Virus record (IMG/VR): IMGVR_UViG_3300045988_181536
Span: 1 to 64,000 of that record
Strand: one strand, 5' to 3'
Source: a virus
DNA length: 64,000 nucleotides
Position 1 is the first letter of the stretch. Each line of letters starts with the position of its first letter. Below, one piece after another: positions 119 to 19,685 of the stretch. The notes under the pieces are model-generated. The model had not been told where the DNA came from. It worked only from the letters and a program-made list of their open reading frames with translations, and did no database searches. The position numbers and the translations under genes were made by a program.

Positions 119-481
119 ATGAAAATAAATAATTTTCACAAATTTGCTGATTTTATTTCTGCTACAGATCCGATTTATAATTCTTTAGTTAAGCCTAAGG
201 ATTCTGAAATTGAATACGGTAGAGTTCCTGGAGCTATTAAACCTAAGGCGCAATCTTTTACAAAAGACATGGGTTATCAGTTTGGATATAATCCTTTATT
301 TGATTACGGCGCATCAGGTCTACTAGGTGCAGGTATAGGAGGTCTTTTGGGTAATCGCACCGGAGCTGTAATTGGAGGGTTAGGTGGCGTAGCTTTACCT
401 GCGATTTATAAGTATTTGAAAAATAATCCTGACGCATTAGAGAAGTTTACCAGCTTATTTAGTAACAAAGCTCAAGCTTAA
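119..481 (+). CDS. hypothetical protein with N-terminal NNFHKFAD motif and C-terminal glycine-zipper hydrophobic segment
   Basis: Track ORF 77..481. I chose the internal ATG at 119 (MKINNFHKFAD) because the motif then sits at residues 4-11, as in four other proteins here. The C-terminus GLLGAGIGGLLGNRTGAVIGGLGGVAL is a GxxxG-repeat (glycine zipper). Confidence 0.5.
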   Translation: MKINNFHKFADFISATDPIYNSLVKPKDSEIEYGRVPGAIKPKAQSFTKDMGYQFGYNPLFDYGASGLLGAGIGGLLGNRTGAVIGGLGGVALPAIYKYLKNNPDALEKFTSLFSNKAQA

Positions 482-547
482 TGCCCTCTACGCAACCGTC
501 ACCGCCAATCGCTTTGGATAAAGCGAATAAAATAATGAAAGATTAAT

Positions 548-1555
548 ATGTCTAAAGCTTCACAATGGGCATTAGCCGCATCTGGTCTTTTAGGAGGCGG
601 TTATTTGTTAAAAGAATTAGCTTTTAATCGCAAAAAACCTAAAAGCTTAGGCAAGCTTTTGGGAAAATTAGCTTTATACGGAGGTTTAGGTGCGGGTGCA
701 GGTTATTTGTTAAACAAAGGCTTATCTAATTATATTTATAATAGCGTTAAGCTAAATCCATATTCTTATGAGCCGGAGTATATTTTGTCATCTTTACGTC
801 CTACAGGAGATACCTTACGTGAAAAAACTTCAGATATTTGGAAAAAATTAACTACAACTCCTAATTTAGATGATGTTAAAGCAGTACCTCATCCCTCCAA
901 ATATCATCAGTCTGAATCCACTCCTGAAGTAAACGACCAAGGAGTAATTACAGAAACTTATAAGCAGCCGAATCCGAATATAGGTCAAATTTTAGCAAAG
1001 TATAATTTTGATCCTGAAGAAATAGAAAAGGACAAATCTTTGGCTCCTGGAGAAAAAATTGTATTTAAGGAATACACAAATGGTTTGCCTTATAGAAGGG
1101 AATTGTTAGCAAGATATTTAGGTATTTTTGATCCAAGTAAAGGAAGTTTATTTAAAGAAATTCCCTATAAAGAAGCGGAAAAATCCTATGATAAAACGGG
1201 AATTTTAGCTAAGTTACCAATAGTCAATGATACTGTGTTAGTTCCTAAAGATCATGATAAGTTTTTTGGGAGTATGGTAGGATTGGACAACTTAGATAGA
1301 AATGCAGGTAAAACCGTATTTGGTCATGGTGCTTCACGTCCTGCGTTAGCCCATGTATTATTTGGATTTAATCCTTTATCAAATGCTTTAAATATAGGCG
1401 ATGTATGGGATTTTAGAGTAAATGATGCAACTGACATTAAGGATACCAAACGCATCTACGGAAATAAAAGTTATTGGATGCGTAAATTAATTACATCTTT
1501 ATTTGAAGATAAAGCGCCTATAGTTTTAGGCTTGAAACAATATAAAAATTATTAA
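548..1555 (+). CDS. hypothetical glycine-zipper membrane-associated protein
   Basis: 335-aa ORF with AT-rich phage-like codon usage. N-terminal region ALAASGLLGGGYLL...LYGGLGAGAGYLL contains two GxxxG zipper segments. Confidence 0.5.
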   Translation: MSKASQWALAASGLLGGGYLLKELAFNRKKPKSLGKLLGKLALYGGLGAGAGYLLNKGLSNYIYNSVKLNPYSYEPEYILSSLRPTGDTLREKTSDIWKKLTTTPNLDDVKAVPHPSKYHQSESTPEVNDQGVITETYKQPNPNIGQILAKYNFDPEEIEKDKSLAPGEKIVFKEYTNGLPYRRELLARYLGIFDPSKGSLFKEIPYKEAEKSYDKTGILAKLPIVNDTVLVPKDHDKFFGSMVGLDNLDRNAGKTVFGHGASRPALAHVLFGFNPLSNALNIGDVWDFRVNDATDIKDTKRIYGNKSYWMRKLITSLFEDKAPIVLGLKQYKNY

Positions 1556-1573
1556 AATATACTTTTATTATAT

Positions 1574-2257
1574 ATGGCTAAATTAAATAAATATGAATTA
1601 GAGACTTTATTGCCTACCGAAACTTTTTTTCACGGTCCGGTTGCAGACGTATTAACACAGGGTTGGCCAAGGCAAGGCATCAGATCTGCAATAGCGAATG
1701 CTCTTGCGACTTCAGGTGGCAGCAATTTGTCAGACAGCTTTAGCCTACGAAATCCATTAATTTCCTATTTGGGTTCCAGTGGTATTGGTGGACTTATTGG
1801 AGCAGGGCTTGGCTTAGGTGCAGGAAGTTTAATGGATCAAGGTTCAAACGGTGCGCTTCTTGGAGCTCTGTTAGGAACTATTATAGGCGGAGGCGCAAAC
1901 GCGATTCATCGAAGGAAATTGATTAAAAAGATTAAGAAAGAATTAGAGAATAAAGATTTAGACTTTAATAAGATTCCTGATCGTAAAGCAATGGCATTAT
2001 TAAATCCAGTTGGAGCCATGTATAACGCAGATGAGTTAGCAACTAAAGCTTTGTTGAAAAGTAAAGATGATGGTTCTGCGGATGCTCCGGTTAACGAAGG
2101 CACCTATAATATGATGTATGGTAATGTCCCTGCAGCTCAAGCAATAAATCTAGCTGTTAAATCTGCCCCATTTGTTGGATTATTGGCTGATCCTGGATAT
2201 TTAATTGCGCGAATAGCAGGCAGAAGAGGCAAATACCGTAAAGATTTAGAAGATTAA
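1574..2257 (+). CDS. hypothetical glycine-zipper protein
   Basis: 227-aa ORF. GSSGIGGLIGAGLGLGAGSL...GALLGALLGTIIGGGANAI glycine zippers followed by a basic stretch RRKLIKKIKK. Paralogous in character to 548..1555. Confidence 0.5.
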   Translation: MAKLNKYELETLLPTETFFHGPVADVLTQGWPRQGIRSAIANALATSGGSNLSDSFSLRNPLISYLGSSGIGGLIGAGLGLGAGSLMDQGSNGALLGALLGTIIGGGANAIHRRKLIKKIKKELENKDLDFNKIPDRKAMALLNPVGAMYNADELATKALLKSKDDGSADAPVNEGTYNMMYGNVPAAQAINLAVKSAPFVGLLADPGYLIARIAGRRGKYRKDLED

Positions 2258-2284
2258 ATAACATATTAAACTTGTTTAATTTAA

Positions 2285-2332
2285 AAAATCTGCAAGACTA
2301 GATTTACTATGGATCAAAATCTTGCAGATTTT
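2285..2332 (+). promoter_or_regulatory. 13-bp perfect inverted repeat (aaaatctgcaaga / tcttgcagatttt) whose 22-nt loop contains the ATG of the 2309 ORF, followed by a T-rich run
   Basis: Read directly: left arm 2285..2297, right arm 2320..2332, ATG at 2309..2311 in the loop, then tctttattt. Confidence 0.45.
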
Positions 2333-2860
2333 TCTTTATTTACAGATACTACTACCGCAGTTAGTATTGCTACTTTAATTGTATTCATCTTAGGCGTAAT
2401 TTATATAAGCTTGCCTTGCGTTTCAAAAGATACGCCTATTTATAAATTGATTAAATATATTTTAACTTTTATATGGAACAATGTGTTTTGTAAAATTGTT
2501 CCAGGGTTAAAACCTTACACGCCTGCTTTGGATAATAAACAATCCTTGGCTGAAGAATCTGGAGATTCTTCTATAAAATCCATTTTGGAAGATAAAGCAT
2601 TTATTCTGGAATTGCAGAAAGTTTATAAAGACGACGTTGCCATAAAAGATTTAATTAAATCTAAAATAAGCAATGTTGTTGCAGAATCTATACAAGTAGT
2701 TAGGGAAAATTACGGAGCTATAGCAAAAAAAGTATCAGTGTATTTTGATATTAAAAAAGAATCTGAAACTTCTGTTTATTTTGACTATGACGAAGGAGTT
2801 TTATTTGACAAAGATTCTTTAGGAACAATAAAAATTAAAAACAATGATTCGAATAAATAA
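2309..2860 (+). CDS. hypothetical membrane protein (one N-terminal TM helix)
   Basis: 183-aa ORF. Hydrophobic AVSIATLIVFILGVIYISL near the N-terminus. Its start codon lies in the loop of the hairpin above. Confidence 0.45.
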   Translation: MDQNLADFSLFTDTTTAVSIATLIVFILGVIYISLPCVSKDTPIYKLIKYILTFIWNNVFCKIVPGLKPYTPALDNKQSLAEESGDSSIKSILEDKAFILELQKVYKDDVAIKDLIKSKISNVVAESIQVVRENYGAIAKKVSVYFDIKKESETSVYFDYDEGVLFDKDSLGTIKIKNNDSNK

Positions 2861-3611
2861 CTTTAGAAAATTTGCATCTGCTGCTTCCAAACCTTATACC
2901 TATGCGGATATGGTCAAGGATTTACAGTCTTATGAAGGATGGGGTAAGCGCAATAACGATGAGATTTATATGGATACAAAGGATACCAAGGACAAACATA
3001 TTCCGACAATGCCTGGGGGCGTTAAACTTTATCCATTTGTAGAACAGTATCTTAGGAAGAATTTAAAATATACCGGAGATTTAAAAGTAGGTTCTAAAAT
3101 TCCAAGAAACATTTCAAGGCAGCTGCAAGAATGGTATTTACAGAATCATGTTGGCGTTCGTAATCTGGAAGGTTTTAATAAGTTGTCTGAAAACGCTAAA
3201 AATCATTTATTGCAGTTAGGCTTTAATGCTAATCTTCCCAATTGGCCCAATTTTAGAGAAGCTCTTGCAGCAGGCAATAAGGCGGAAATAATTAAGCATT
3301 TAAGAGACTCTAATGTTTGGAGAAATGAGCAGGAAAGGTTTCAAAAGGGAGAAAAATTTACGCCGAGATGGACGAATACAATTAACGCTTTAGAAAAGGA
3401 ATTTGGATTAGCTCCAGCAACTGTTGCAGTTACGGACAACGATGCAAATAATAAATTATCCAAGCGTCCGTTACCTAATAAAGGCATCGCCGCAAGTCCT
3501 CAACAACAATCCAAAGAAACAAATAGTTGGGTTCATCCGGAAACAGGGGAAATTTGGACGCCCGAAAAACTGACGAACGCAGTAAAATCTGCTCCAGTAA
3601 TAGAGATATGA
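2844..3611 (+). CDS. putative lysozyme-like protein (T4-lysozyme / GH24-like fold) carrying the N-terminal NNFRKFAS motif
   Basis: MIRINNFRKFAS at residues 4-12. YEGWGKRNNDEIYMDTKD has T4L-like E-x8-D-x5-T catalytic spacing. LSENAKNHLLQLGFNANL and ALAAGNKAEIIKHLRDSNVWRNEQERFQ resemble the T4L C-terminal lobe (NMVFQMG ... AAVNLAKSRWYNQTPNRA). Confidence 0.45.
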   Translation: MIRINNFRKFASAASKPYTYADMVKDLQSYEGWGKRNNDEIYMDTKDTKDKHIPTMPGGVKLYPFVEQYLRKNLKYTGDLKVGSKIPRNISRQLQEWYLQNHVGVRNLEGFNKLSENAKNHLLQLGFNANLPNWPNFREALAAGNKAEIIKHLRDSNVWRNEQERFQKGEKFTPRWTNTINALEKEFGLAPATVAVTDNDANNKLSKRPLPNKGIAASPQQQSKETNSWVHPETGEIWTPEKLTNAVKSAPVIEI

Positions 3612-4630
3612 TTAAAAAAATCATTCCATTAAACATAGAAAATTATGGTTTTAATTTAGATGAGGATGATTATTTTTCATCTATACATGAAAACCATAAT
3701 TTAATTGAGGCAGTAAGAAAATTTTTTAAAGAGGTAGAGGATGAAAACCCTGAATATTGGTGGAATGGGTTGCGCTTAGAAAACTTTAATGGCACTTATG
3801 ATCGAATTTACGCTTTATTTTACAAAGGCACATTAATCGGTTATGTAGGCATAACACCAAGATCAGAAATAACGGAATTGTTGCCGTATGAAAGCATACC
3901 TGGAGAATATATTAGCGTAGCTTTATTAAATAAATATAGAGGTAAAGGTATAGCTAAAAAAATGGTTGCCGAGGCAATTAGCGATTTTGAGTCTGAAAGT
4001 GGTTATGGTAAATTAAAAAATCCAGTGTGGACAGTTCATGAAGATAATAAAAAATCGCAAGCGTTATTTAAATCGTTAACATCAGGAAATGAATACTTGA
4101 AGAATTTAGGCATTAGATTAATAATCAAAGATAAATTTAATAATTTTAAGGATATGTCAAAAGATACGAATGCACCTACCACGGTTGAAGAATTTTTAGA
4201 ATTTGCTAAAACAGCTTTTGTGCCTGCTGAAAAAATGGCTGGCGCCGGAGCTCCACCGCCTCCTGAAGCCATGCCCCCGCAAGGAGGAATGCCGCCCATG
4301 GACCCATCCGCTATGCCTCCTCCAGGAGCTATGCCTCCGGATCCCTCAATGATGGGTGGGGCTATGCCGCCTATGGATCCTGGCATGGGTGGAGCTGCTC
4401 CCCAAGGTGGAGATCCGGTAGCTGAAATAATTCCTATGTTGGAGGAATTTGGATCCACAGTTCAAAAACAGGAACAAGACATTAATGCTATGCGTCAAGA
4501 ATTTGCTGATCTTAAGCAATCTTTTATTGATTTGCAGAATAAGTATTCGCAAATCGCAGGTCAGTATTCTACGATTATAAGCATCATGCAAGGCGGGAAA
4601 CTTCCCGAGGCTCCGAAACTCTCTGTATGA
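3608..4630 (+). CDS. GNAT-like acetyltransferase-fold domain, Met/Pro-rich low-complexity linker and C-terminal coiled coil
   Basis: I chose the start at 3608 (ATGA overlap with the stop of the upstream gene) rather than the track start 3527. ISVALLNKYRGKGIAKKMV fits the GNAT motif A (R-x-x-G-x-G/A after a beta strand). Six MPP(x)DP repeats follow, then a heptad-rich tail. Confidence 0.4.
   Translation: MIKKIIPLNIENYGFNLDEDDYFSSIHENHNLIEAVRKFFKEVEDENPEYWWNGLRLENFNGTYDRIYALFYKGTLIGYVGITPRSEITELLPYESIPGEYISVALLNKYRGKGIAKKMVAEAISDFESESGYGKLKNPVWTVHEDNKKSQALFKSLTSGNEYLKNLGIRLIIKDKFNNFKDMSKDTNAPTTVEEFLEFAKTAFVPAEKMAGAGAPPPPEAMPPQGGMPPMDPSAMPPPGAMPPDPSMMGGAMPPMDPGMGGAAPQGGDPVAEIIPMLEEFGSTVQKQEQDINAMRQEFADLKQSFIDLQNKYSQIAGQYSTIISIMQGGKLPEAPKLSV
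4250..4410 (+). repeat. imperfect tandem coding repeat (atgccNcc units) encoding MPPxDP/MPPQGG low-complexity repeats
   Basis: About six consecutive atgcc(t/g/c)cc units, locally GC-rich. This explains the spurious minus-strand ORFs 4036..4458 and 4346..4591. Confidence 0.5.
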
Positions 4631-4881
4631 TTATTAGATTAAGGTCAGCTTTAGACAGACAAGTTATAGAAGTGCCAAAAGACATTTCTTTTGTGGAGTT
4701 ATGCAATGATGAAGGAAAAGTAATGTCCGTGTTGGTTCAAAATAAACTAACAGGCACTTTAGACATGTTTGATTTTCGTGACGTTGATACAGCGAAGCGT
4801 TACGAGAATTTTTTTAAAGTTGAATTTTTAAAAGATGTACGAGTCTTAGATCCTGAAAAATATTCTGAAGAAAGGAAGTAA
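4627..4881 (+). CDS. hypothetical protein
   Basis: 84-aa ORF whose start overlaps the upstream stop (ATGA), in an operon-like context. Confidence 0.4.
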   Translation: MIIRLRSALDRQVIEVPKDISFVELCNDEGKVMSVLVQNKLTGTLDMFDFRDVDTAKRYENFFKVEFLKDVRVLDPEKYSEERK

Positions 4882-4883
4882 AT

Positions 4884-5156
4884 ATGAGCAGCACATCACC
4901 GGAGGGGGATTCAATATATAATTTAAGATTTAAGGTTACGTTAAATAACGAAGATAAATATTATGACATGACGGTTAACTCTGAAAATCTGTCTAGAAAT
5001 AATATATTAGCCAAGTTTAATTTTAACGAAACTACTGATGCTACCGGAGCACAGGAATCTTATACATTAAAGGATAATACCGGAATAGATAGACAAATGT
5101 ATCTCGTAGTAGATACTATAAATGGAGTGTTAACTCCAAAACTTGAGGTGAAATAA
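4884..5156 (+). CDS. hypothetical protein
   Basis: 90-aa ORF. SD-like aaaggaag lies 6 nt upstream. Confidence 0.4.
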   Translation: MSSTSPEGDSIYNLRFKVTLNNEDKYYDMTVNSENLSRNNILAKFNFNETTDATGAQESYTLKDNTGIDRQMYLVVDTINGVLTPKLEVK

Positions 5157-5158
5157 TA

Positions 5159-5449
5159 ATGTTTAAAAAAGTATTTTCCATATTTTTATTGTTTCTTCTT
5201 ACAGCCTGCTCTTACCAGGTAAAGTTATCATTTAAGGATGATATTGAGAAAATACAAGAACAACAAATAGCTTTATACAGGGATGATTGCATTCAAAATT
5301 TATATTTTGACGCGATAAACAATCCTGATCTGTTAAAAAAATCCGACAAAGAATTAGGAGAATTATATTTTAAGTTCTTTTCCGTTCAAGATCAGATAAT
5401 TTATGTTCAACAGGCAAGGAATTTGGTAAAAAATAAGGACGGAGATTAG
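5159..5449 (+). CDS. lipoprotein (signal peptide with lipobox L-T-A-C)
   Basis: MFKKVFSIFLLFLLTACSYQ is a basic n-region, hydrophobic core and LTAC lipobox. SD gaggtga lies 8 nt upstream. Confidence 0.5.
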   Translation: MFKKVFSIFLLFLLTACSYQVKLSFKDDIEKIQEQQIALYRDDCIQNLYFDAINNPDLLKKSDKELGELYFKFFSVQDQIIYVQQARNLVKNKDGD

Positions 5450-5451
5450 CT

Positions 5452-6414
5452 ATGTCAGGCATAAAAACGTTATTTTCGTGGGTTAAAAATAAGTTTAAAA
5501 AGAATCGTAGAAGTGAATCTACGCCTTCTGAGAAGTTAACTGCTTTATTTAAATCAAAATCAGGTTCTTCAAAATTATTGGGTTGTAAACCCGACCTACC
5601 TGATGAGCGTGACCATATCAAACTTGGATCATCTATTTATCAAAATACCGTAGATAGCGTTAAGGATTTTTCTTTAAAAAAGTATGCGCCGCCTGTGCAA
5701 AATCAAAAAAATACATCGGCATGCGGGGGTTTTGCAGCATCTGCGGCTGTTTTTATTTTGCGCAATAAAATGTTAAATATGGTGCAGCCTGGTAATTCGG
5801 ATAAAGATGTAACTGGGAATTTTTTACTCTCACCTTTATATATTTATTATAATGCAAGGTTTGTAGACTTTTTATTTGATGATAAATTTTACGGCAAGGT
5901 TAGTTCTCCGCTTCCGGATTGCGGAGTTACACTTAGAAGCTTAATGAAAGCTTTAAAAAAATACGGTGTAGTTCCGGAAATCGTAATGCCATTTTATAAG
6001 TTTACACCGGATAGCAATCCGCCTGGAGCTATTGATCCTGCAAAGAATTTTAAAATAAAAGAATATTTAAGGATTTCAATGGAAGCTGATCCGGAAGAAA
6101 TCTGTAAAAATGTGTTGGTTGCTGAGCATCTTCCTATTATTGCAGGTTTATATCTTTATAAGGAACAAATGGATAATTTGGATTACTATGGATATTTGGA
6201 ACCTTGTAAGGATATCAAAGATGCTGAATTAATTGGAGGGCATGCGGTTTGTATTACCGGATTTAAACAAAAGAACGGTCAAACCTATTTTGAATTTTTG
6301 AATAGTTGGGGTACATCAACAGGGGATTTTGGATATGGTTATTTTCCTGCTTCGTTTTTGTCGGATAAAAATTATGTAATGGACCTTTGGACCTTTGATA
6401 AAAGTTATTTCTAA
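5452..6414 (+). CDS. papain-family (C1A) cysteine peptidase
   Basis: VQNQKNTSACGGFAASAAVF matches the papain VKNQGSCGSCWAFSAV block, with the oxyanion Gln and the nucleophile Cys at nt 5722..5724. IGGHAVCITGF matches the DHAVAAVGY His block (His at nt 6241..6243). LNSWGTSTGDFGYGYF matches the NSWGTGWGENGY Asn block. SD ggacggag lies upstream. Confidence 0.75.
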   Translation: MSGIKTLFSWVKNKFKKNRRSESTPSEKLTALFKSKSGSSKLLGCKPDLPDERDHIKLGSSIYQNTVDSVKDFSLKKYAPPVQNQKNTSACGGFAASAAVFILRNKMLNMVQPGNSDKDVTGNFLLSPLYIYYNARFVDFLFDDKFYGKVSSPLPDCGVTLRSLMKALKKYGVVPEIVMPFYKFTPDSNPPGAIDPAKNFKIKEYLRISMEADPEEICKNVLVAEHLPIIAGLYLYKEQMDNLDYYGYLEPCKDIKDAELIGGHAVCITGFKQKNGQTYFEFLNSWGTSTGDFGYGYFPASFLSDKNYVMDLWTFDKSYF

Positions 6415-6620
6415 TGCAGATAATTATAGCATCCATTTTAAAAATTATTGAATATATTGCTTCTATTTTTGCTAATAGAGCAAAAGATAACGCTTTAACA
6501 GACAATGAGTTGGCTAAGAAGATCAACCGAGAGTCAGATAAGCATAATGAATTAATAAACAAATCTTTAAAAGGGGATAAAAAAGCTCTCGATGAAATAC
6601 GCAAGAATATTTCTATTTAG
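6414..6620 (+). CDS. small protein with hydrophobic N-terminus and coiled-coil tail (i-spanin-like or holin-like candidate)
   Basis: 68 aa. MQIIIASILKIIEYIASIFA is hydrophobic; heptad-like ELAKKINRESDKHNELINKSLKGDKKALDEIRK follows. Start overlaps the upstream stop (ATGCAGA). Confidence 0.35.
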   Translation: MQIIIASILKIIEYIASIFANRAKDNALTDNELAKKINRESDKHNELINKSLKGDKKALDEIRKNISI

Positions 6621-6960
6621 CATATGCATAGTTGTAGCAGGATGTATGTCTACGACTAATAAGACTCCTGACATTATAGAACGAGATGTAATATCTTATG
6701 ACGAATATGGTGATCAGACAGGGGGTTTAATAGATATTGAAGAAGGAAAATATTTTATAATTACTAAAAAAACAGTTGATTTATATAACGCTTTAGTAGA
6801 TAAATACGGTGATAAAATTGTGCCGCCTTTAAAGAAAAACGAAGGCATCACAAAATGTGAAAATGGAAATAATTATAAAATTTCGCCAAAATACATGAAA
6901 TATTTTATGGATATGGCGGATGCCTACCGTATGGAACTTAACAGAAAGGATAATTTATAA
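6592..6960 (+). CDS. lipoprotein (lipobox V-A-G-C), o-spanin-like candidate overlapping the upstream gene
   Basis: MKYARIFLFSICIVVAGCMSTT is a signal peptide plus lipobox. The 5' end overlaps 6414..6620 by 29 nt in another frame, as in Rz/Rz1-type arrangements. It is larger than a typical o-spanin and not Pro-rich. Confidence 0.4.
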   Translation: MKYARIFLFSICIVVAGCMSTTNKTPDIIERDVISYDEYGDQTGGLIDIEEGKYFIITKKTVDLYNALVDKYGDKIVPPLKKNEGITKCENGNNYKISPKYMKYFMDMADAYRMELNRKDNL

Positions 6961-7212
6961 ATGACGGAAGATCAAAAAGATAAACTTTATGCTTCTAAAG
7001 GAATCACAATTCCCGCTGGAATGTCTGCATTTGGACCAAGCACGGAAGAATGGATGCAAATGAGTGGAATAGGAACTTTATTTCACAATTTTGTAAATCC
7101 TTCAAATGCAAAATCCGAAGAAGCAAATAAAGTAGTGGAAGAGAGAACTGTGAATAATACGGATAATCCTAAACGTAAATTTTTGTTTAATGTAAGACTA
7201 TCTAAAAGTTAG
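6961..7212 (+). CDS. hypothetical protein
   Basis: 83-aa ORF starting 1 nt after the upstream stop. Confidence 0.4.
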   Translation: MTEDQKDKLYASKGITIPAGMSAFGPSTEEWMQMSGIGTLFHNFVNPSNAKSEEANKVVEERTVNNTDNPKRKFLFNVRLSKS

Positions 7213-7221
7213 TTATCGACA

Positions 7222-7246
7222 AGCACACATAAAGTGTGCTAATTTT
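7222..7246 (+). terminator. weak hairpin (agcacac ataaa gtgtgct) followed by aatttt
   Basis: 7-bp stem read directly, located after the 6961..7212 stop. Confidence 0.3.
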
Positions 7247-7254
7247 AAATAATA

Positions 7255-7755: not shown

Positions 7756-7756
7756 T

Positions 7757-8660: not shown

Positions 8661-8661
8661 A

Positions 8662-8955: not shown

Positions 8956-8957
8956 TT

Positions 8958-9698: not shown

Positions 9699-9737
9699 GG
9701 CATAGCAGATAAAGACAAAATCCTAAACTTAGATAAA

Positions 9738-9768
9738 AACCTGCGGTTATCCGCAGGTTTTTATCTTT
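9738..9768 (+). terminator. rho-independent terminator (aacctgcgg ttat ccgcaggtt + tttatcttt)
   Basis: 9-bp GC-containing perfect stem, 4-nt loop and T-run, read directly. It closes the 1-9.7 kb gene block. Confidence 0.6.
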
Positions 9769-9825
9769 ACATTTCTTTAGGTTTAACAGAAAATAAAGCA
9801 TTAACATTTAAAATTTTATTTCAAT

Positions 9826-10431
9826 ATGCCTGGCTCAAATACATACTGCAGGGTAACTGCCAAATTATTCACTGAGTTTGCTTATTATTCTCCCGTTTAT
9901 GCTTCTCCACAAGCAGGATTGGAAGATGAAAAGTATCTGGATTTATCGTTTAATGTTTCAGGGGATGATAATACTATTTATGGATTAGTTACACATCCGA
10001 TTACTACGGTTAATGAGGTTTATGACGGAACTTCGGATGCCACAGGGTTAAAAGCTTCGCTTTATCGTTATACTACAATACAGCAATTAGATGAAGATGG
10101 GAACGTGGCTTCAATTAATACTTGGATGCCCGTGGGCGAAGAAATAGATGTTACTGCAGGCACTCCATTTAAGTTTGAACATTTATTTGCCGCAATTTAT
10201 AAACTAGTCGTTACAGGTACAGCGGAAAATTATGCTGTAAATGTATCGTATCAGTATGAGCCAATGAAGGCTGTTATGCTAAATGAGGTTAAATACACGA
10301 ATCCTCAAAGGTATTACGCAGAGCCGAATTATACAATACAATCCAACTCAATAAACAATATTGGAAATTTTAATACAACAGCTGTTGACAGTGTATCTGG
10401 AAATTCAGTAGATTTTGCGCCGAACGTTTAA
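9826..10431 (+). CDS. hypothetical protein (beta-rich)
   Basis: 201-aa ORF, the first gene after the terminator. No recognisable motif. Confidence 0.45.
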   Translation: MPGSNTYCRVTAKLFTEFAYYSPVYASPQAGLEDEKYLDLSFNVSGDDNTIYGLVTHPITTVNEVYDGTSDATGLKASLYRYTTIQQLDEDGNVASINTWMPVGEEIDVTAGTPFKFEHLFAAIYKLVVTGTAENYAVNVSYQYEPMKAVMLNEVKYTNPQRYYAEPNYTIQSNSINNIGNFNTTAVDSVSGNSVDFAPNV

Positions 10432-10446
10432 CAGCAACGCTTTACT

Positions 10447-12723
10447 GTGAAGGCAATTCAATATCTTATTAACTCCGTATTACCTGAGGATATTAGGGAC
10501 TACACTCGTACATATGACGCCAAGTCTATGAACGAGTTGCAGTCTGCTATAGCTGAAAAATATCCGGAACGTTATAGGGAATTAATGGATAAAATTATGG
10601 ATATTGCGCGTAAGTCTGTTTATTACTCGGGACAGACTTTGCGGCTTTCCGATTTTAAACCTCCGTTTGATAAAGATGTGGCATTAGAAGAAATGCACAA
10701 CGAGGTGCAGTATCTTCGTGACAATATTAAAGACGAAGAAAAAAAGAACAAAGCTATAATGGACGTATATGAAAGGTATGCTACAAAATTGGAAAAGGAT
10801 ACCTTAAATGCGGCTAAAACAAATCGCAATAATTTATACAATTCCGTATCTTCAGGCGCCAGAGGTTCTCCGTTCCAGTTAAAAGCTTTGATAACAACTC
10901 CGGCTTTGTACACTGATTATAAAGGCAGAACAATTCCTTATTTTGTTAAGCATAGTTTTGGAGAAGGTTTATCTATTCCTGAATATTTGGCGAGTACATA
11001 TGGAACACGCGCAGCAACAATTGCCATAAAAAAGAGTACAGCAAAGTTTGGCGGCTGGGGTAAAAGTTTATTTCGCCCGGTATCCAATATGATGATAACC
11101 TCAAAAAAAGATACGTCAAACAACGGTATTGATTTAGATATTGATGACGCATCTTTATATGGCAGAGTATTGGCGCGTCCGGTTGCCGGATATGCTGAAG
11201 GCACAATTGTTGACAGGGATGTATTAAATTCTTTAAAAAGCAAGGGCGTAAAAACTGTTATTGTTCATTCCCCTATTGCTACAGTATCTGCAGAGGGTAT
11301 TTCAGCTGAAGCTTTTGGACTAGATTACAATAAACGTTTGCCAAAGGTTGGAGATTTTCACGCAGGTATTACTGCTGCTACAGCAACTAGTGAACCTGCC
11401 ATTCAAGGTGGTTTGTGTCTACATTACACAACTGAAATTATGTTATGGGATGGAACAAAAAAACAAATTCGAGATATTGTTCCGGGACGTGACATTGTTA
11501 AAAGCTTAGATACAAATGGCAATATAATTGCAGCTAAAGTGCTTAATAAATTTAAGCAAGGTTGCAGGAACGTTTATGAAGTTATATTTGAACACAACGA
11601 TATTGCGTATTCTGTTATTTGTACTCGTAACCATAAATTTAAAATTTATGGGGAAATGTTAGATCTACCTGTAAAAGAAATTTATAAAAAATCTTTATGT
11701 TTTGATGTTCTTGGAGATCCTGCACGTATTCTTGATATAAGATTCTTGGGTAATAGGGTGTGTTTTGACATAGAAGTTGATAGTCCGACACATTTGTTTG
11801 TTTTAGCAAACGGTCTTATATCTCATAATTCGTCTAAGCATGAAGCTGGTGGATTTAAAGGAAAGAAGCGCACATTCTCCGGATTTGATTATATCAATCA
11901 ATTTTTTGAATCTCCTGAGCAGTATAAATCGAAAGCTCCGCTTGCAGAATCAGACGGTAGGGTAGAAAAAATATATGAAGCCCCACAAGGGGGACATTAT
12001 ATTGTTGTAAATGGTGTAGAACACTATGTTGATCCGGATTCTAATATTGAAGTACAAGAAGGTCAAGAGGTTGAACAAGGAGATCAGTTGGCGGATGGAC
12101 TCGTAGATTTAGGAGATGTATTGCGTTTGAGAGGTCTTGGGGAAGGTAGAAAGGCATTTGTAAACATAGGCAAACAGTTATTAGATGACAGTAATGCCAC
12201 CGCACATAAGCGTAATTTAGAGGTGTTGGCCCGAGGCATTGTAGATAAAGTAGAGATTACGGATCCTGATGGCGTGGGAGATTATTTGCCTGGGGATATT
12301 GTATCTTATAATGCATTGGAAGCTTCTTATAAACCCGATAAGGATTCAAAAGAAATAAATATATCCTCTAAAAATAAAGATTTAAAAGGCAAATACTTAC
12401 AGAAACCAGTATTGCATTATACTATCGGTACCAAGTTAACCAATAAAATGATTGATCACATCAGAAATACCGGCATAACGGATTCTGTTCTTGTATCGGA
12501 TAATGAACCTGGATTTACGCCAATTTATGTGAGATTAAGAGAAGCTCCAAACAAGGGTAATAGAAATTTCTTAGAAAGGGCAACAGCCCCTTATCAGGCA
12601 AAGAATTATGTTGAGTCAGCAGTCAGAGGTTATAAAACTAATATCAAAAGTAATTTAGACCCGTTTGTTAGAATGTCCATGCCTGATTTTGCCGAAAACA
12701 CTGATATAACAGGAAGATTTTAA
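10447..12723 (+). CDS. multisubunit RNA polymerase beta-prime subunit, C-terminal fragment (split rpoC-like), interrupted by a mini-intein in the trigger loop
   Basis: GTG start 15 nt after the upstream stop. [81 protein letters not shown] matches the bacterial beta-prime block [82 protein letters not shown][intein]SKHEAGG matches the trigger loop [32 protein letters not shown] matches DILRLRGV. There is no NADFDGD motif, so the N-terminal half must be encoded elsewhere. Confidence 0.8.
   Translation: [758 protein letters not shown]
11416..11829 (+). mobile_element. mini-intein (138 aa, Hint domain only, no homing endonuclease) in the RNAP beta-prime trigger loop
   Basis: Begins with Cys ([13 protein letters not shown], block A). 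It has TRNH (block B T-x-x-H) and ends ...[12 protein letters not shown] followed by Ser as the +1 extein residue. Removing it restores a contiguous trigger-loop sequence. Confidence 0.7.
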
Positions 12724-12725
12724 TT

Positions 12726-13889
12726 ATGTTAATTACGAAAAACTTTCAAAAATTTGCTTCAAATATTGCAGTAAAAAACAGTTCTTTTAAGTTTGCTAAC
12801 TTTAAGAAGTTTGCTTCAAATCCCCAAGTTGCTTCAGAAGTTCGTCAAGGTGTTCGTGACGAATATGGAAAATCTTTTAATGATAATAATCAGTGGACAG
12901 ATTTCAGGCTGGATATGAATAGAGGCACAATGGCCCAGGTAAGGAGATTAGGGGCTTACGCCAAAGGAGCAATTATGGGGCCAACTAACATCCAAAGACA
13001 ACGGAATAACATCCAAGCACAACAGCAACAGTTGAAGCCTCAAAACAACACTACAAATAATAATACCAACAATAATAAACAGGAAAAAGGTTGGTTTGGC
13101 AAACTTTGGGATAAAAGTAAGAATTTTGTTAAAGGTATGCATGAAAGCGGCATGCAAGAAGCGGGTAACTATACCAAAGCCGTAGTTGATAGTGATTTGG
13201 GTTCATTGGATCAAGTTTCTCGAGGTTTGTCAGATCGAGCCGGAGCTGAAGCGGTTAAAGCTCAACAAATCGCAAGAAGTTATATAGCACAAGGAAAACC
13301 GATTCCCAAAGATGTTGCGGATCGCATGGCTAAGGCTCGTGCTTACGATTCTGCTGCAGGTCAAGTGATGAAATCTACATCTTACACTTCACAAGATTTA
13401 GAGAAGAATATGCGTAACGAATTAGAGAGGTATCAAAATGATGTAGAAGAAAATATGTATAACTCTCGAAACACACAGGCGCGTGTATCTCAAACTTTAG
13501 AAGATAAAGCGTATAATGATTTTAAAAATCTTAGTGGATGGGATAAAGTTAAAGTCATATTCCAAAAATTTTTATCAGGTATGGGAGTAAAAATCCCTAA
13601 AGATTGGGCATATAACAATTTTATAAATCGTCAAAGAAATGAGGCGCAAGATTACATAAGAAATAAAAGTAATCTTGGTAATCAAATGTTGGGAGAATAT
13701 GCTGCTGCTTCACAATATGACTTAAATGATCCTCGTCAACGTGCTGAATTTTATCAAATAAACTCTCAACGGATGGATCAACTAAATAATCGTTATAAAA
13801 ATGTTAAAGTAAATCCCGAGGTATCAGCTTACATAGCGCAACAACAAGCAAAACGCAACCCTGTAAATTCTAATGCTCAAGCGGTTTAA
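12726..13889 (+). CDS. hypothetical virion-type protein with three tandem N-terminal NFxKFAS/N motifs and a Q/N-rich low-complexity region
   Basis: MLITKNFQKFASNIAVKNSSFKFANFKKFASNPQ, then NIQRQRNNIQAQQQQLKPQNNTTNNNTNNNKQ. 387 aa. Start is 2 nt after the rpoC-like stop. Confidence 0.5.
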   Translation: MLITKNFQKFASNIAVKNSSFKFANFKKFASNPQVASEVRQGVRDEYGKSFNDNNQWTDFRLDMNRGTMAQVRRLGAYAKGAIMGPTNIQRQRNNIQAQQQQLKPQNNTTNNNTNNNKQEKGWFGKLWDKSKNFVKGMHESGMQEAGNYTKAVVDSDLGSLDQVSRGLSDRAGAEAVKAQQIARSYIAQGKPIPKDVADRMAKARAYDSAAGQVMKSTSYTSQDLEKNMRNELERYQNDVEENMYNSRNTQARVSQTLEDKAYNDFKNLSGWDKVKVIFQKFLSGMGVKIPKDWAYNNFINRQRNEAQDYIRNKSNLGNQMLGEYAAASQYDLNDPRQRAEFYQINSQRMDQLNNRYKNVKVNPEVSAYIAQQQAKRNPVNSNAQAV

Positions 13890-13890
13890 T

Positions 13891-14295
13891 ATGTTTAATA
13901 TATCTAATTTTAAAAAATTTGCTGCCAGCCCTGATTGGATTAAAAACCAATTAACGGAATCAATAACAAATCAAGCAGATCAAACAAATATTGATGAAAA
14001 GGATACCACGGTTAATTCAAGCAACTACGATGCTAACATAACTTCGGAAGATAGGGAATCTGGGGAGTATGATTCTCTAATGAATAACAATAAAGATTTC
14101 TTGAAAAACATATTAAGTGACTATGGAAAGAAAAATAATGTGTTGGAAGATCTAAATAAAAAGGTATCCATATTAGAATCTCAGGGTCAAAAGGGAAAAG
14201 CTAATGCTTTAAGAACAGCTATAGGCAGATCCAGTGACTCTAAATTTACAGAAGATATAGACAGATTTTCAAAAGATATTGCGAACCAACTATAA
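13891..14295 (+). CDS. hypothetical protein with N-terminal NFKKFAAS motif
   Basis: The track gives 13873. I chose the in-frame ATG at 13891, which starts 1 nt after the upstream TAA and yields MFNISNFKKFAAS with the motif placed as in the paralogous N-termini. Confidence 0.45.
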   Translation: MFNISNFKKFAASPDWIKNQLTESITNQADQTNIDEKDTTVNSSNYDANITSEDRESGEYDSLMNNNKDFLKNILSDYGKKNNVLEDLNKKVSILESQGQKGKANALRTAIGRSSDSKFTEDIDRFSKDIANQL

Positions 14296-14359
14296 TTTAA
14301 GATTGATTTAATCTTTGAAAATCCCGTAAAATTGTTTCAATCAAAATTTATTATACACC

Positions 14360-16783
14360 ATGCTTTCACTAAAGAACTATGATTTTAAAAAGGCTGCTTC
14401 CTCAGCTTTAAAAGAAACAGATGCTGAAATAGCTTTTTATAGGGCGTCTTCTACGGTAATGGAAGACAAAGCCTCGCCTTTTTTTACGAATGACTACTAT
14501 TTAGGTTTCGAGATTGTAAAAACGAATGACTCGTTTACAAAAATGGTAGGCATATATGTGTTTAGAGTTAACAAATATATATTTTATGCGCCTGTATTCT
14601 ACGTTAATGGCCAGATAAAAGGCACGGAGTTCTTATATAATGTAGAGGAGAAAAAGTTTGTTTATCTCAGTCCTGAATGGTGTGATTATTTCATAGGTCT
14701 TTATGAAGAGGAGGCTGATGGATTTCCAGTTGATATGGCAGAGGCCAATCAAGGCAGGCAAGATATTGAAATGATGCGTATTGCCACGCCATTATATAAG
14801 ACATCTTCTTTAAAGAAGTTTGCTTCGGATTTAAATCTATCCGCAGACGAAAGAGAGTTTGGTTCTTTTTCGGATATGTACGATAATGTTTTTGAAACAT
14901 TTGTTAATTCCCCTGATTCAGATTACAGCCCGTTGCATGTGTTTTTAAAATCTGCGGGTATAAATGCTTGGAATAAATTATCCGATGCTTTAAAAACAGA
15001 TAGGGAATTTGCTAATAATGTGGTAGGTCTTTGTGACGAGCAGGATTATATTCCTATGGATGTTTTATCCGAGGCAAAACAAAATGTTAAACATGCTGCG
15101 GAGAACCCAAAGAAAGATTTATTAATTTTGCATAAAGGCATATTTAATAAAAATACCGTTAAGACTGCTGCTGAACAAATCGCCAATGGTTATTCATTTG
15201 AGGATAACCGAGATGAAGATCAGCTTAATATGATATATGATGCAGATCCGGATCAGAATTGGGCAGGTATTTCCACCAATGCTCCGTCTGTTTATGATAT
15301 TTTAACTACTGACGGGTCTACGGTTAGGTGTGTTGCTATTGTGGGAAACTCAGATTATGGGAAAACTCCAGCCCTTTTAGTTTCGATAGATCCGGAACGC
15401 AAAGGAATAATTCAGTATTATGACATTAATAGTCCCGAAGAATTATATAATCAAGAGGATGAAAATGTTAAAGCCCCAGGCGTACACGATCCTGTAGTAG
15501 GTAACTTTAGAAATATTTTAGCGATAGAGGAAAAGGATTCGGATAAACGAGAGGAAGATTTAACCAAGGTGTTAAAAGAAAAACCTGAAGTTGGAAAAAT
15601 TTATGGCATTTGGGATCCTGAATATTGTTATATATCTGATGAAGCTTTTTATGTTGGAGAAGTAAAAGCTAATGCTGATGATCCTAAGGGATACACTGTA
15701 AAAGTTTATCCAATTCAAGGTTATGATAAGTTTAAGCCTTGGGAAGCTTTGGTTCAAGGAACGGATGAAATTATTCAAGTAAATCCTTCAGCTCAATATC
15801 CTATGTATGATTTAAAGGTGTTTCAGCCAAGCATACGTTGGATAGAGTTGCCTACTGAAACGATTGATTTGGCTAAAAAGATGAAGGCTGAATTTAAAAT
15901 TGATGATGCTTTTTCATTTAAGAAAAAGGATTATCGCATTGACATAATTCAAGCCGAATGGGTTCCAGGTAACTGGGCAAATCTATATGCTAATACTTTG
16001 GTCAAACATTCCAGCGTAGGACATGGATATGTCAATTACAATGGCGACGGCAGTTATAACTTAAACATAGCAGGATTTAAATTTGCAAACGTAAATGTAA
16101 TGGGTGCTATGGCGTTGCTTATGGGGAATGTAAATATTTCCGAAGAAACTGCCGATTATATAATTAAGCATGCAAATGATAATCAAAGGCGTGGCGAGGA
16201 TTATAAATTCCTATTTAAAAAATTTGCGGATAGAATAATTTTAAATCCTGATCCGGACTTTTTTGAAGGGTTTGATTCCGATTTAAATATACCATATGAA
16301 ATTCCGGAAACTCGCGCTTTGATGACGGATGAAACTTCTTATGCTCCGCCTGCTCCACGATATGGTGATATGATGACGCCAACCATGATGGGGGTAGCAA
16401 AAGCAACCGAAGGAGTATCCAGAGAAGACCCCAATGATTTCTTACAAACAGCCACTCCGAATATGTTGGCAGAGTTTGCGGAACGCAGTGGACAACGCAG
16501 CGTATTTGAGCATGGCATTGTTAGCGTGTTATCCCAGGTTTCAGATGCACAAATGTATATTAACGAATTTTTACCTTCGTTAAGGGATGGCATGGATAAA
16601 CTTGCTAGGCTGTTATTCTTAATAGTAATAAGCCCGCAAAACTTTGTGAAATACTACGGTAGTGATGATATTAAAGGATTGGAAAATTCTGTTTCAGCAT
16701 GCTTTAAACAGCTATCAGAATTAACATTAGATTTAATACAAAAGACTTCCGGTGTATCTACAAATACTACCAATAAAGTTTAA
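14360..16783 (+). CDS. large hypothetical virion-type protein (807 aa) with N-terminal NYDFKKAAS motif and two internal KKFA(S/D) copies
   Basis: MLSLKNYDFKKAAS at the N-terminus. SSLKKFASD is encoded at nt 14808..14834 and FLFKKFADR at nt 16209..16235. No catalytic motif recognised. GNSDYGKT resembles a Walker A but is mid-protein. Confidence 0.5.
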   Translation: MLSLKNYDFKKAASSALKETDAEIAFYRASSTVMEDKASPFFTNDYYLGFEIVKTNDSFTKMVGIYVFRVNKYIFYAPVFYVNGQIKGTEFLYNVEEKKFVYLSPEWCDYFIGLYEEEADGFPVDMAEANQGRQDIEMMRIATPLYKTSSLKKFASDLNLSADEREFGSFSDMYDNVFETFVNSPDSDYSPLHVFLKSAGINAWNKLSDALKTDREFANNVVGLCDEQDYIPMDVLSEAKQNVKHAAENPKKDLLILHKGIFNKNTVKTAAEQIANGYSFEDNRDEDQLNMIYDADPDQNWAGISTNAPSVYDILTTDGSTVRCVAIVGNSDYGKTPALLVSIDPERKGIIQYYDINSPEELYNQEDENVKAPGVHDPVVGNFRNILAIEEKDSDKREEDLTKVLKEKPEVGKIYGIWDPEYCYISDEAFYVGEVKANADDPKGYTVKVYPIQGYDKFKPWEALVQGTDEIIQVNPSAQYPMYDLKVFQPSIRWIELPTETIDLAKKMKAEFKIDDAFSFKKKDYRIDIIQAEWVPGNWANLYANTLVKHSSVGHGYVNYNGDGSYNLNIAGFKFANVNVMGAMALLMGNVNISEETADYIIKHANDNQRRGEDYKFLFKKFADRIILNPDPDFFEGFDSDLNIPYEIPETRALMTDETSYAPPAPRYGDMMTPTMMGVAKATEGVSREDPNDFLQTATPNMLAEFAERSGQRSVFEHGIVSVLSQVSDAQMYINEFLPSLRDGMDKLARLLFLIVISPQNFVKYYGSDDIKGLENSVSACFKQLSELTLDLIQKTSGVSTNTTNKV

Positions 16784-16804
16784 AAATATACACATTTAAG
16801 TTTT

Positions 16805-19682: not shown

Positions 19683-19685
19683 ATT

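Follow-up and report, generated by a model that had tools for sequence, protein, structure and literature searches.

A short N-terminal peptide shared by unrelated proteins of an uncultured phage: a putative propeptide for a gp21-like head protease

We analysed a window of 64,000 nt from the genome (approximately 173 kb) of an uncultured phage. Several unrelated proteins of this phage begin with a common peptide of about ten residues, N-F-x-K-F-A↓S, where the arrow marks the putative cut. The tagged genes and two genes of interest beside them are the following.

128-151, plus strand: tag NNFHKFAD, residues 4-11 of ORF 119-481 (sequence scan, codon view)
2856-2879, plus strand: tag NNFRKFAS, residues 5-12 of ORF 2844-3611, 255 aa (sequence scan, codon view, alignment)
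5452-6414, plus strand: C1A papain-family peptidase (PF00112, E 2e-7), a less likely candidate for the processing enzyme
10447-12723, plus strand: RNAP beta'-like subunit, C-terminal part, a context gene that lacks the tag (homology to Arash gp216)
12738-12818, plus strand: tandem tags of ORF 12726-13889, namely KNFQKFAS (12738-12761), the partial SSFKFAN (12780-12800) and ANFKKFAS (12795-12818) (scan, codon view)
13903-13926, plus strand: tag SNFKKFAA, residues 5-12 of ORF 13891-14295, 134 aa, acidic (scan, codon view)
14372-14401, plus strand: variant tag KNYDFKKAAS, residues 5-14 of ORF 14360-16783, 807 aa (scan, orthologue alignment)
14807-14830, plus strand: internal site SLKKFASD, residues 150-157 of ORF 14360 (scan, orthologue alignment)
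15086-15103, plus strand: internal site VKHAAE of ORF 14360, K244 invariant in 8 orthologues (orthologue alignment)
16211-16234, plus strand: internal site LFKKFADR, residues 618-625 of ORF 14360, A623 invariant in 8 orthologues (scan, orthologue alignment)

All copies of the strict tag, N-F-x-K-F-A-[S/D/A], are in frame and lie within residues 1-31 of four ORFs (119, 2844, 12726, which has two, and 13891), as revealed by a six-frame scan and by the codon view. The pattern NF.KFA was observed 5 times, against 0.012 expected from 2000 within-protein shuffles. At the DNA level, AAYTTYNNNAARTTYGC gave 5 matches where 0.09 were expected, every one of them on the plus strand, in frame and at the start of an ORF; neither the six-frame scan nor the DNA pattern search found it out of frame, on the opposite strand or between genes. 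The copies differ in their synonymous and x-position codons. In relatives the tag is unchanged though the adjoining residues differ, both in the alignment of ORF 2844 homologues and among 59 homologues of ORF 12726. These results indirectly support a tag that acts at the peptide level and is common to non-homologous proteins. An earlier note on this DNA had described a shared N-terminal signature conserved as peptide and not as DNA, and had named the comparison with a shuffled proteome; the signature is real on all these counts, with ORF 14360 carrying a variant. Two of its internal KKFAS/D copies, in ORF 14360, and the ASKFASE of ORF 22120 were retrieved, but its QFKKFISAED (45166-45180), in which the Ala is missing, does not qualify. 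Of the three copies it counted in ORF 12726, two are full and one is partial. About 4.5 kb before the first nucleotide of the window there is a sixth tagged ORF (L013 4981-5337; MYFANFKKFAV), and a looser version of the motif is present in many further ORFs.

The tagged genes are lineage-specific. ORF 119 encodes 120 aa with a glycine-zipper segment at the C-terminus, and its 90%-identical orthologue in L013 retains the tag. Among 11 homologues of ORF 2844, M1, I2, N6, F7, K9, F10 and A11 are invariant. The top matches of a low-confidence structure model of this protein are all T4 lysozyme or the gp5 lysozyme domain, making it plausibly lysozyme-like, as the earlier note had called it. The orthologue of ORF 13891 in L003 reads MSFKILNFKKFAAS. 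Orthologues of ORF 14360 retain a site at the extreme N-terminus (NWKKYAE, AWKKQAAS, DFNKIAS or MIKKLAAT in place of the variant tag) plus the internal positions. The homologue of ORF 14360 in Salmonella phage Arash, gp218, is abundant in the virion preparation (1149 spectra). RNAP beta/beta' are the top proteins in Arash virion mass spectrometry, and gp216, homologue of the RNAP beta'-like gene, is among the most abundant; this indirectly bears out the earlier description of that neighbour as virion-RNAP-like. The RNAP beta'-like protein is presumably packaged and lacks the tag, which counts against a leader that marks cargo.

ORF 12726 has its full tags at residues 5-12 and 24-31. Its cargo part is hypervariable: the protein shows 35% identity between genomes that share 93-99.7% identity elsewhere. 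The DNA match to L002 breaks off exactly after the third tag, a mosaic junction that resembles those at T4 internal-protein loci. The tags are intact in 36%-identical homologues (P0146/P0147), one natural deletion variant (P0138) has a single tag, and other lineages encode non-homologous tagged ORFs at the same position.

The strict tag is the sharpest form of a broader rule, hydrophobic-x-K-x-A↓S/A/G, whose core is found near the N-terminus of most head-module proteins and twice in the gene for a candidate prohead protease.

17919-17939, plus strand: site LLRFAS↓E, residues 31-37 of head-module ORF 17829-19682 (orthologue comparison)
20400-22037, plus strand: candidate prohead maturation protease, 545 aa (gp21/assemblin-fold domain)
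20496-20516, plus strand: N-terminal site NIKKA↓SS, residues 33-39 of the protease (family alignment)
21108-21128, plus strand: site ILKSA↓CE after the catalytic domain of the protease, K239 and A241 invariant (family alignment, model)
22180-22200, plus strand: site ASKFA↓SE, residues 21-27 of the scaffold-like acidic ORF 22120-23649 (sequence scan)
23952-23972, plus strand: site LTKLA↓SE, residues 13-19 of the coiled-coil ORF 23916-24416 (sequence scan)
24045-24065, plus strand: second site, TIKKA↓SA, of ORF 23916-24416 (sequence scan)
25317-25337, plus strand: site TIKMA↓SS, residues 34-40 of the major capsid protein, ORF 25218-26249 (orthologue alignment)

Within the first 45 residues the looser core was observed 11 times against 2.1 expected. 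With the upstream hydrophobic residue it occurs in 9 of the 31 genes in nt 1-26249 (10 with the ASKFAS of ORF 22120) and in 1/29 genes of the tail and other modules. Ten related loci, including those of Arash and Vibrio phage D181, each show a 3-8-fold N-terminal enrichment of the motif. Orthologues of ORF 17829 have LLKYAH, LLKFAK, LIKYAS or MLKCAR at the LLRFAS site. In the major capsid protein the site lies directly upstream of the conserved mature N-terminus in eight orthologues (24-40% identity), where it aligns with CKFA↓S, AFA↓S and KKA↓S, and with KEA↓G in Arash and D181.

The gp21/assemblin-fold domain of ORF 20400 spans approximately residues 50-220, with invariant H101 and S152, and a helical C-terminal part follows. 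Membership of the gp21 family is not demonstrable from the sequence: ORF 20400 has no Pfam match, and hhalign against that family gave E 0.19. Both flanks of the domain carry the motif. At the N-terminal site, P4 is I/V/L in 31/31 family members, P3 is K in 29/31, P2 is variable, P1 is A in 29/31, P1' is S/A in 31/31 and P2' is S in 31/31. At the second site K and A are each conserved in 31/31; it lies inside a disordered linker (pLDDT <50 for residues 221-244), and 95 of 96 further representatives of the family have K-x-A-[SAG] at residues 200-290. The tag core K-x-A↓S recurs across the clade at putative maturation sites of the capsid protein, other head-module proteins and the protease itself, which lends indirect support to the tag as a cleavable leader.

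The earlier note had put forward another processing enzyme, the C1A peptidase of ORF 5452, for which the tags would be substrates clipped at K-F-A↓S with Phe read at P2. Papain-type enzymes favour a bulky hydrophobic P2, and Phe is found there in every strict tag. ORF 5452 truly belongs to the C1 family, and one other lineage has a homologue within its head module (L015 5766-6617). Yet when homologous sites are compared across the clade, P2 proves free (S, K, T, E, Q, A, V and others) whereas K at P3 and A at P1 are fixed, and the clade-wide motif therefore misfits a P2-driven enzyme. Homologues of the peptidase were found only in the phage's own lineage and in L015/L016, and the motif is retained where the 20-35 kb surrounding the head genes yielded no C1 gene (L014, L025-L029, Arash, D181). 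ORF 20400, by comparison, is universally present and has the motif on both of its flanks, and it is the better candidate, which the earlier note had not recognised; processing of the tags by the C1A peptidase is quite unlikely. It is also unlikely that the tag stays uncleaved and only resembles a protease motif, acting as a docking peptide that stays in place or as an amphipathic helix, for instance to bind scaffold, portal or membrane. The additional conserved Asn and Phe and the tandem copies of ORF 12726 would fit a binding motif, residues 4-9 are helical in the low-confidence model of ORF 2844, and the leader of the 80alpha scaffold is required for assembly while its cleavage is dispensable (PMC5744158). 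Against this, the tag holds the complete K-x-A↓S core seen at the capsid-protein maturation position and the protease flanks, the single-tag variant shows that extra copies are dispensable, and the conserved positions of the internal copies in ORF 14360 suit cutting rather than docking.

The tag also bears a close likeness to the leader of long ribosomal protein L27, MLxx(D/N)LQ(F/L)F↓A(S/H)KK, which the cysteine protease Prp of host or phage cuts at F↓A: compare MLITKNFQKFASN here with MLKLNLQFF↓ASKK in Staphylococcus aureus (PMC9405229), or N-F-Q-K-F-A-S with (D/N)-L-Q-F-F-A-S. In 80alpha, on capsid and scaffold proteins, and in other Firmicute phages, this leader of 9-15 residues is likewise found at the N-terminus of non-homologous proteins (PMC5744158). 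However, the invariant Lys of the tag stands where the L27 motif has F/L, and no KK follows. The Prp cut at F↓A is made by a host cysteine protease (C108), while the fixed K at P3 and A at P1 go with a family of serine proteases encoded by phages and are retained in proteobacterial phages: the K-x-A core is kept in phages of Salmonella and Vibrio and in a Desulfovibrio locus, and long L27 is absent from Proteobacteria such as E. coli (PMC9405229). The genes of the window are poor in Shine-Dalgarno sequences (14/60 with even a 4-mer), unlike those of typical Firmicute phages, and the nearest genome-bin relative is labelled Bacteroidales. A regular-expression search found no Prp-like motif in the window or the loci, and Pfam none in the 30 window ORFs scanned. 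Mimicry of L27 is thus highly improbable. Conservation at the level of the nucleic acid, as an AU-rich region that helps translation start in a host poor in Shine-Dalgarno sequences or as a recombination site, is scarcely credible. The tag codons are AU-rich (AAY TTT NNN AAA TTT GCN) and directly follow start codons, and a mosaic junction falls at the tag end. But the pattern is confined to one reading frame, its codons vary, copies lie far from start codons (residues 19-31, 150-157 and 618-625) and distant relatives retain the peptide core with different codons. Any recombination at a shared leader would follow from the peptide itself and so be no alternative to a peptide-level role.

The observed motif, its non-random placement and conservation and the fold of the protease lead us to propose, with a probability of roughly 0.6, that the tag is a cleavable propeptide for ORF 20400, a serine-protease-like enzyme with the fold of T4 gp21 and herpesvirus assemblin, and that the tag designates the cargo of the head and probably has a part in loading it as well. 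The core, hydrophobic (P5 or P4)-x-K (P3)-x-A (P1)↓S/A/G/D (P1'), would be the recognition and cleavage signature of the protease. The carriers of N-terminal leaders (ORFs 119, 2844, 12726, 13891, 14360 and the one upstream of the window) would be internal head cargo or ejection proteins, among them the lysozyme-like and the glycine-zipper protein. They would enter the prohead along with core and scaffold proteins, and during maturation the protease would clip off the leader of about 10-30 residues, cut ORF 14360 internally, trim the capsid protein after residue 38 and free itself by one cut on either side of its catalytic domain. Two observations count against parts of this scheme. The Arash table gives 100% coverage for the head-module proteins gp221, gp223 and gp224, which at face value includes peptides on the N-terminal side of the predicted sites. 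A tail-module protein, ORF 41119, also has K-F-A-D (residues 12-15), a copy that a capsid-confined protease leaves unexplained.

Comparable leaders and motifs exist in other viruses. The maturational sites of herpesvirus assemblin are (V/L/I)-x-A↓S; they share with ours a fixed P3, a free P2, Ala at P1, Ser at P1' and, putatively, self-release at flanking sites, but P3 is aliphatic there and Lys here, in a bacterial virus. The group of phiKZ, 201phi2-1 and SPN3US (gp175/gp245 protease) likewise comprises large myoviruses that have a virion-associated multisubunit RNAP and use a gp21-like protease to process many of their head and ejection proteins. However, their motif is S/A/G-x-E↓ and most of their propeptides exceed 100 residues, whereas the leaders here have about ten and sit on non-paralogous proteins. 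No sequence relationship of phiKZ-type giant phages to this clade was detectable. The SPN3US paralogues gp53/gp54 share an identical 15-residue N-terminus, termed CTS-like by the authors (PMC5694885).

Close parallels exist with the capsid targeting sequences (CTS) of T4. Their type is MKTYQEFIAE, and the gp21 cut follows the Glu of L/I-x-E; the tag, x-N-F-x-K-F-A with a putative cut after Ala and before Ser, is unrelated in sequence. It also belongs to another phage clade, of approximately 173 kb and with multisubunit RNAP genes, and targeting and cleavage are proven experimentally in T4 and inferred here. In T4, propeptides of 10-20 residues on diverse internal proteins (IPI/II/III, Alt and others) are removed by gp21 (PMC3012670; PMC5694885), and the cargo genes are highly diverse with a conserved leader (PMC3012670). 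Here too a short leader is common to otherwise unrelated proteins, probably of the head interior, the cargo diverges while the leader is kept, and the leader appears to end at the motif that a protease of the phage itself would cleave, an enzyme which may also cut core, scaffold and capsid proteins of the head module. The earlier reading of a sorting signal or propeptide thus holds in that the tag has the properties of a CTS-like leader or head propeptide, with its core at putative maturation sites, and fails in its choice of the C1A peptidase. Asn at P6 and Phe at P2 fall outside the clade-wide consensus, leaving room for a second recognition partner. Because these residues and Phe at P5 are specific to the tag, and because the tag keeps a fixed position and is retained on fast-changing cargo, our analysis suggests that the leader may double as a loading signal, as the capsid targeting sequence does in T4.

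The peptide N-F-x-K-F-A-[S/D/A] lies at residues 4-12 of ORFs 119, 2844, 12726 and 13891 (ORFs are named by their start), and ORF 14360 begins with the variant KNYDFKKAAS, the tags of these five ORFs all falling within residues 4-14. ORF 12726 carries a further tag at residues 24-31 and a partial copy at 19-25. The strict motif was seen five times against 0.012 expected in shuffled proteins, and the DNA-level pattern five times against 0.09. The tag is a real, strongly non-random peptide, and the earlier note's claim of an N-terminal tag shared by five proteins holds, ORF 14360 with a variant. All strict copies are in frame, on the + strand and inside genes, and from copy to copy the codons vary both synonymously and at the x position. 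This frame and strand specificity, together with the codon variation, confirms that conservation acts on the peptide and not on the DNA, and rules out a DNA-level repeat or nucleic-acid element. Another proposed copy, QFKKFISAED in ORF 44848, lacks the Ala and is not an instance. The regular-expression search suggested by the earlier note covered ~94 kb of a genome of ~173 kb. Two stretches of 10 kb added upstream of the window gave a single sixth tagged ORF, MYFANFKKFAV (from the related contig L013), and the second stretch held none. Since no mutual homology was detected among the five tagged ORFs beyond the tag, simple paralogy was rejected. A Sec or lipoprotein signal was also rejected, because the tags have no hydrophobic core.

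All called genes of the window are on the + strand, GC is ~35%, and few genes are recognisable. None of the tagged proteins matched Pfam or PHROGs, and almost none of the other ORFs scanned did.

Recognisable genes of the window
3608-4630, + strand, GNAT protein
5452-6414, + strand, C1 papain-family peptidase
10447-12723, + strand, RNAP beta'-like subunit
25218-26249, + strand, major capsid protein
28574-30103, + strand, tail sheath

A megablast search with nt 1-20000 gave no DNA-level match to GenBank phages, and the close relatives are IMG/VR contigs of at most 173 kb, all from a single metagenome. The phage itself is known from metagenomic sequence only. Salmonella phage Arash and Vibrio phages D181, D148 and D69 are distant relatives at the protein level: the RNAP beta' and capsid proteins are 23-31% identical to theirs, with a common gene order. 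Arash, D181 and eight metagenomic lineages keep the head genes in synteny, in the order 14360 ... 20400 - 22120 (acidic) - 23916 (coiled coil) - 25218 (capsid protein). The most abundant proteins of an Arash virion preparation (PMC10585845) included both RNAP subunits, beta and beta', as well as gp218. ORF 14360, to which gp218 is homologous, gave only non-significant matches in a sequence search of PDB. The ~10 kb downstream of the window hold non-structural genes, and the window has no tRNA genes. Shine-Dalgarno-like matches, even of 4 nt, precede 14 of its 60 genes; with a nearest genome-bin relative labelled Bacteroidales, this hints at a Bacteroidota-type host.

The tag is one form of a broader pattern. 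Within the first 45 residues of proteins, the density of K-[FLM]-A-[SD] is about nine times that elsewhere, and K-x-A-[SD] occurs 11 times against 2.1 expected. If the Lys must also be preceded by a hydrophobic residue, at a distance of one or two positions, 9 of the 31 genes as far as the capsid gene have N-terminal matches (10 if ASKFAS of ORF 22120 is counted), against only 1 of the 29 genes of the tail and later modules. We write the core as hydrophobic-x-K-x-A|S/A/G, with Lys at P3, Ala at P1 and the bar at the predicted cut. Beyond this core, the strict N-terminal tags have Asn at P6 and Phe at both P5 and P2, and they lie a few residues from the initiator Met; cleavage would remove ~10 residues per tag, and ~30 in ORF 12726.

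Carriers of the core in the head module
ORF 17829, LLRFA|S
ORF 20400, NIKKA|S
ORF 22120, SKFA|S
ORF 23916, LTKLA|S
Capsid protein, TIKMA|S

In eight orthologues of the capsid protein (24-40% identity), the site directly precedes a conserved block, the would-be mature N-terminus (TIKMA|SSAGTSFIR, CKFA|SESGTSYIR, KKA|SDLSSAYIR, and KEA|GAAMS.FVR in Arash and D181). In the orthologues of ORF 14360 a site persists right at the N-terminus (NWKKYA|E, AWKKQA|A, DFNKIA|S, MIKKLA|A). Internal sites persist as well: K244 and A623 are invariant, so the internal KKFAS/D copies listed in the earlier note are conserved sites and not chance matches. In each of ten related loci, including bins labelled Bacteroidales and Oscillospiraceae, K-x-A-[SAG] is 3-8-fold enriched in the first 45 residues, a count reached in at most 9 of 1000 shuffles. 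Separately from these loci, a protease homologue on a Desulfovibrio piger scaffold keeps the site. This scaffold belongs to an isolate genome, ATCC 29098; the homologue (L049 9935-11965) has SLIKSAS|Q close to the N-terminus and suggests that a cultured bacterium harbours a prophage, or a remnant, with a protease of this family.

Two further occurrences lie outside the head module. ORF 41119-44064 (981 aa), in the tail/baseplate region, begins MACLTWSEYCNKFADSG and has K-F-A-D at residues 12-15 (41146-41166); its only relative is 95% identical, and the motif is unexplained, being outside what a capsid-confined protease accounts for. About 19 kb past the window end, an ORF of a related contig (L020 22678-23084) starts MDQNSDSNFAALEVLKK...ESFTKMAS|TLYADREF, with K-x-A-S at about residue 37. 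It may be another processed virion protein.

The enzyme that would cut the tags is likely the product of ORF 20400-22037, encoded in the head module upstream of the genes for the scaffold-like and major capsid proteins. A model from 31 homologues (mean pLDDT 81) predicts the characteristic gp21/assemblin fold; Foldseek matched it to T4 prohead protease gp21 with probability 1.00, and the candidate catalytic residues H101 and S152 are invariant in the 31 sequences. Sequence methods missed the relationship. No Pfam match (Peptidase_S77 or similar) was found at E<=0.1 and no PHROG match, and both sequence and profile searches of PDB came back empty. With hhalign, only the NKNADGFPK / NRNKRLYPK stretch aligned to gp21, at E 0.19. 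Membership is therefore at the level of the fold and not of the sequence family. The family of ORF 20400 gave 73 matches in an indexed search and 4151 cluster representatives in an exhaustive one.

The K-x-A motif stands on both flanks of the catalytic domain. At the N-terminal site of the 31 homologues (32-82% identity), P4 is Ile, Val or Leu and P1' is Ser or Ala in all 31, P3 is Lys in 29 and P1 is Ala in 29, while P2 varies. The post-domain site, in a linker with pLDDT below 50, has Lys and Ala in 31/31 and Ser in 26/31, and 95 of 96 further representatives of the family have K-x-A-[SAG] at residues 200-290. These sites match the assemblin layout (V/L/I)-x-A|S, with P3 and P1 fixed and P2 free. 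Proteases of the gp21 type and assemblins typically release themselves at flanking sites; for SPN3US and phiKZ, autoprocessing of the protease at its C-terminus is reported in the SPN3US paper (PMC5694885). Inteins are frequent in this clade: in many of the protease homologues an intein/LAGLIDADG insert occurs near position 152, and in some near position 69. An RNAP beta' piece upstream of the window (L013 20-1967), ending ...GADFDGDCQW and followed by a 518-aa ORF, also appears to be intein-split.

We favour, with a probability of about 0.6, the reading that the tag is a cleavable leader read by this gp21/assemblin-fold prohead protease and marking head cargo. The earlier note had instead proposed the phage C1A peptidase, ORF 5452-6414, as a candidate processing enzyme. 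Papain-type enzymes read mainly P2, and the Phe of the strict tags at this position fits, but across the clade P2 is variable. A site constant at P3 and P1 but free at P2 argues against a papain-type enzyme, and of the lineages compared just this one and another were seen to have the gene; the proposal was not borne out, and we regard it as quite unlikely. That the tag is an uncleaved docking peptide is unlikely. The Arash virion coverage figures are unfavourable to the predicted cleavage for some proteins, without being decisive.

The tag also looks strikingly similar to the leader of the L27/Prp type, whose motif is MLxx(D/N)LQ(F/L)F|A(S/H)KK (PMC9405229). That motif is not matched: the tags have Lys in place of F/L before the Phe, no KK after A-S, and Gln in one tag only. 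The fixed Lys is foreign to it, the K-x-A core is kept in phages of Proteobacteria (Salmonella, Vibrio), the genes are Shine-Dalgarno-poor, and no Prp-like sequence was found in the window, loci or ORFs scanned, which makes a leader of this type very improbable.

The closest parallel to a prohead-protease leader is in T4, where diverse internal proteins have only the capsid targeting sequence (CTS) in common (PMC3012670, PMC5694885). As with the CTS, a short N-terminal leader (10-20 residues in T4) sits on otherwise unrelated proteins and ends in the putative maturation motif of the phage's gp21-type protease, the sites here being deduced from conservation. As in T4, too, the leader is kept while the cargo genes are diverse or hypervariable (ORF 12726, with a junction at the tag end). 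The motifs differ: T4 has its own consensus with cleavage after Glu (L/I-x-E) and phiKZ-like giant phages have S/A/G-x-E, whereas we found no Glu-type motif but N-F-x-K-F-A-S/D/A and K-x-A|S/A/G. Judged from the sequence, the tag is an analogue of the T4 CTS and not a sequence member. The leader would follow the known CTS/propeptide principle, and the protease family is large (~4000 clusters at 50% identity across the clade) and unannotated. No description of the tag motif was found in the limited literature examined.

The tagged genes are not part of the conserved head module but stand among fragments of RNAP genes, and they are lineage-specific: no homologues were detected in more distant lineages, where non-homologous ORFs at the same position have analogous leaders (YVKKFAS, NWLKKQAA, MFTKKAAP, AMRKVAS). 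Between the window and a sister genome, ORF 12726 is 35% identical, its neighbours 99% and nearly all other genes 93-99.7%; the DNA identity spans the third tag copy and ends right after it. Tags are intact in homologues of ORF 12726 at only 36% identity, and a natural variant, P0138, has a clean 19-residue deletion that leaves a single tag. A second hypervariable cassette lies at 8079-9698: ORFs 8079, 8662 and 8958, small proteins of signal-peptide or lipoprotein look, are 24-33% identical to their sister-genome counterparts, and neighbouring genes 96-99%.

ORF 2844 had no Pfam and no PDB sequence match. None of its homologues is below 64% identity, and so its structure model is weak (pLDDT 56 overall, 70-89 for residues 60-190). 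The top Foldseek matches of this model are all T4 lysozyme or the gp5 lysozyme domain (probability 0.9-0.97, E ~0.05), and the protein is plausibly T4-lysozyme-like. ORF 119 has a glycine-zipper segment, and both proteins would fit ejected proteins. Glycine-zipper, transmembrane-like segments occur in ORFs 119, 548, 1574 (weak PF05433 match) and 19686 (548-2257, 19686-20396), and similar small proteins of D181 and Arash have K-x-A-S leaders (e.g. MFKSAS|TKV in D181). Directly downstream of the lysozyme-like gene, 3608-4630 encodes a GNAT acetyltransferase domain fused to a low-complexity linker rich in Pro and Met and to a coiled coil; new Ala/Ser N-termini are substrates of some GNATs, and any tie to the A|S sites is purely speculative. 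Upstream of the window, L013 5551-6750 and 8268-9539 encode paralogous proteins of ~400 aa with HExxH motifs (HEVGHAKD, HELGHAVD), which may be metallopeptidases; the C-terminus of the second is tag-like (...YANFKKFKSFCT).

The leader plausibly doubles as a loading signal, at somewhat less than even odds. Any leader-fused protein would then enter the prohead, be freed by the gp21-like protease and be injected along with the DNA, and the leader would be the handle by which fast-evolving injected cargo is exchanged among genomes: perhaps anti-defence or host-takeover proteins, a lysozyme, and glycine-zipper proteins that act on membranes. Tentatively, a large clade of mostly uncultured phages may thus have in this leader a portable signal for capsid loading and a recombination handle for swaps of injected cargo; the T4 CTS principle would then have been invented independently here, or have diverged very deeply, with assemblin-like A|S specificity.

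If correct, this would give a simple rule for a large and essentially uncharacterised clade that includes the cultured Arash and D181. The pattern hydrophobic-x-K-x-A|S/A/G would predict mature N-termini, and also which 'hypothetical' proteins are head-packaged and probably injected. The T4 CTS serves to load foreign proteins into capsids, and a ~10-residue tag might do so here. The Ala|Ser specificity deduced for the phage protease matches that of herpesvirus assemblins and would be an evolutionary link. Finally, the fast-evolving tagged cargo would be candidates for early-acting or anti-defence functions.
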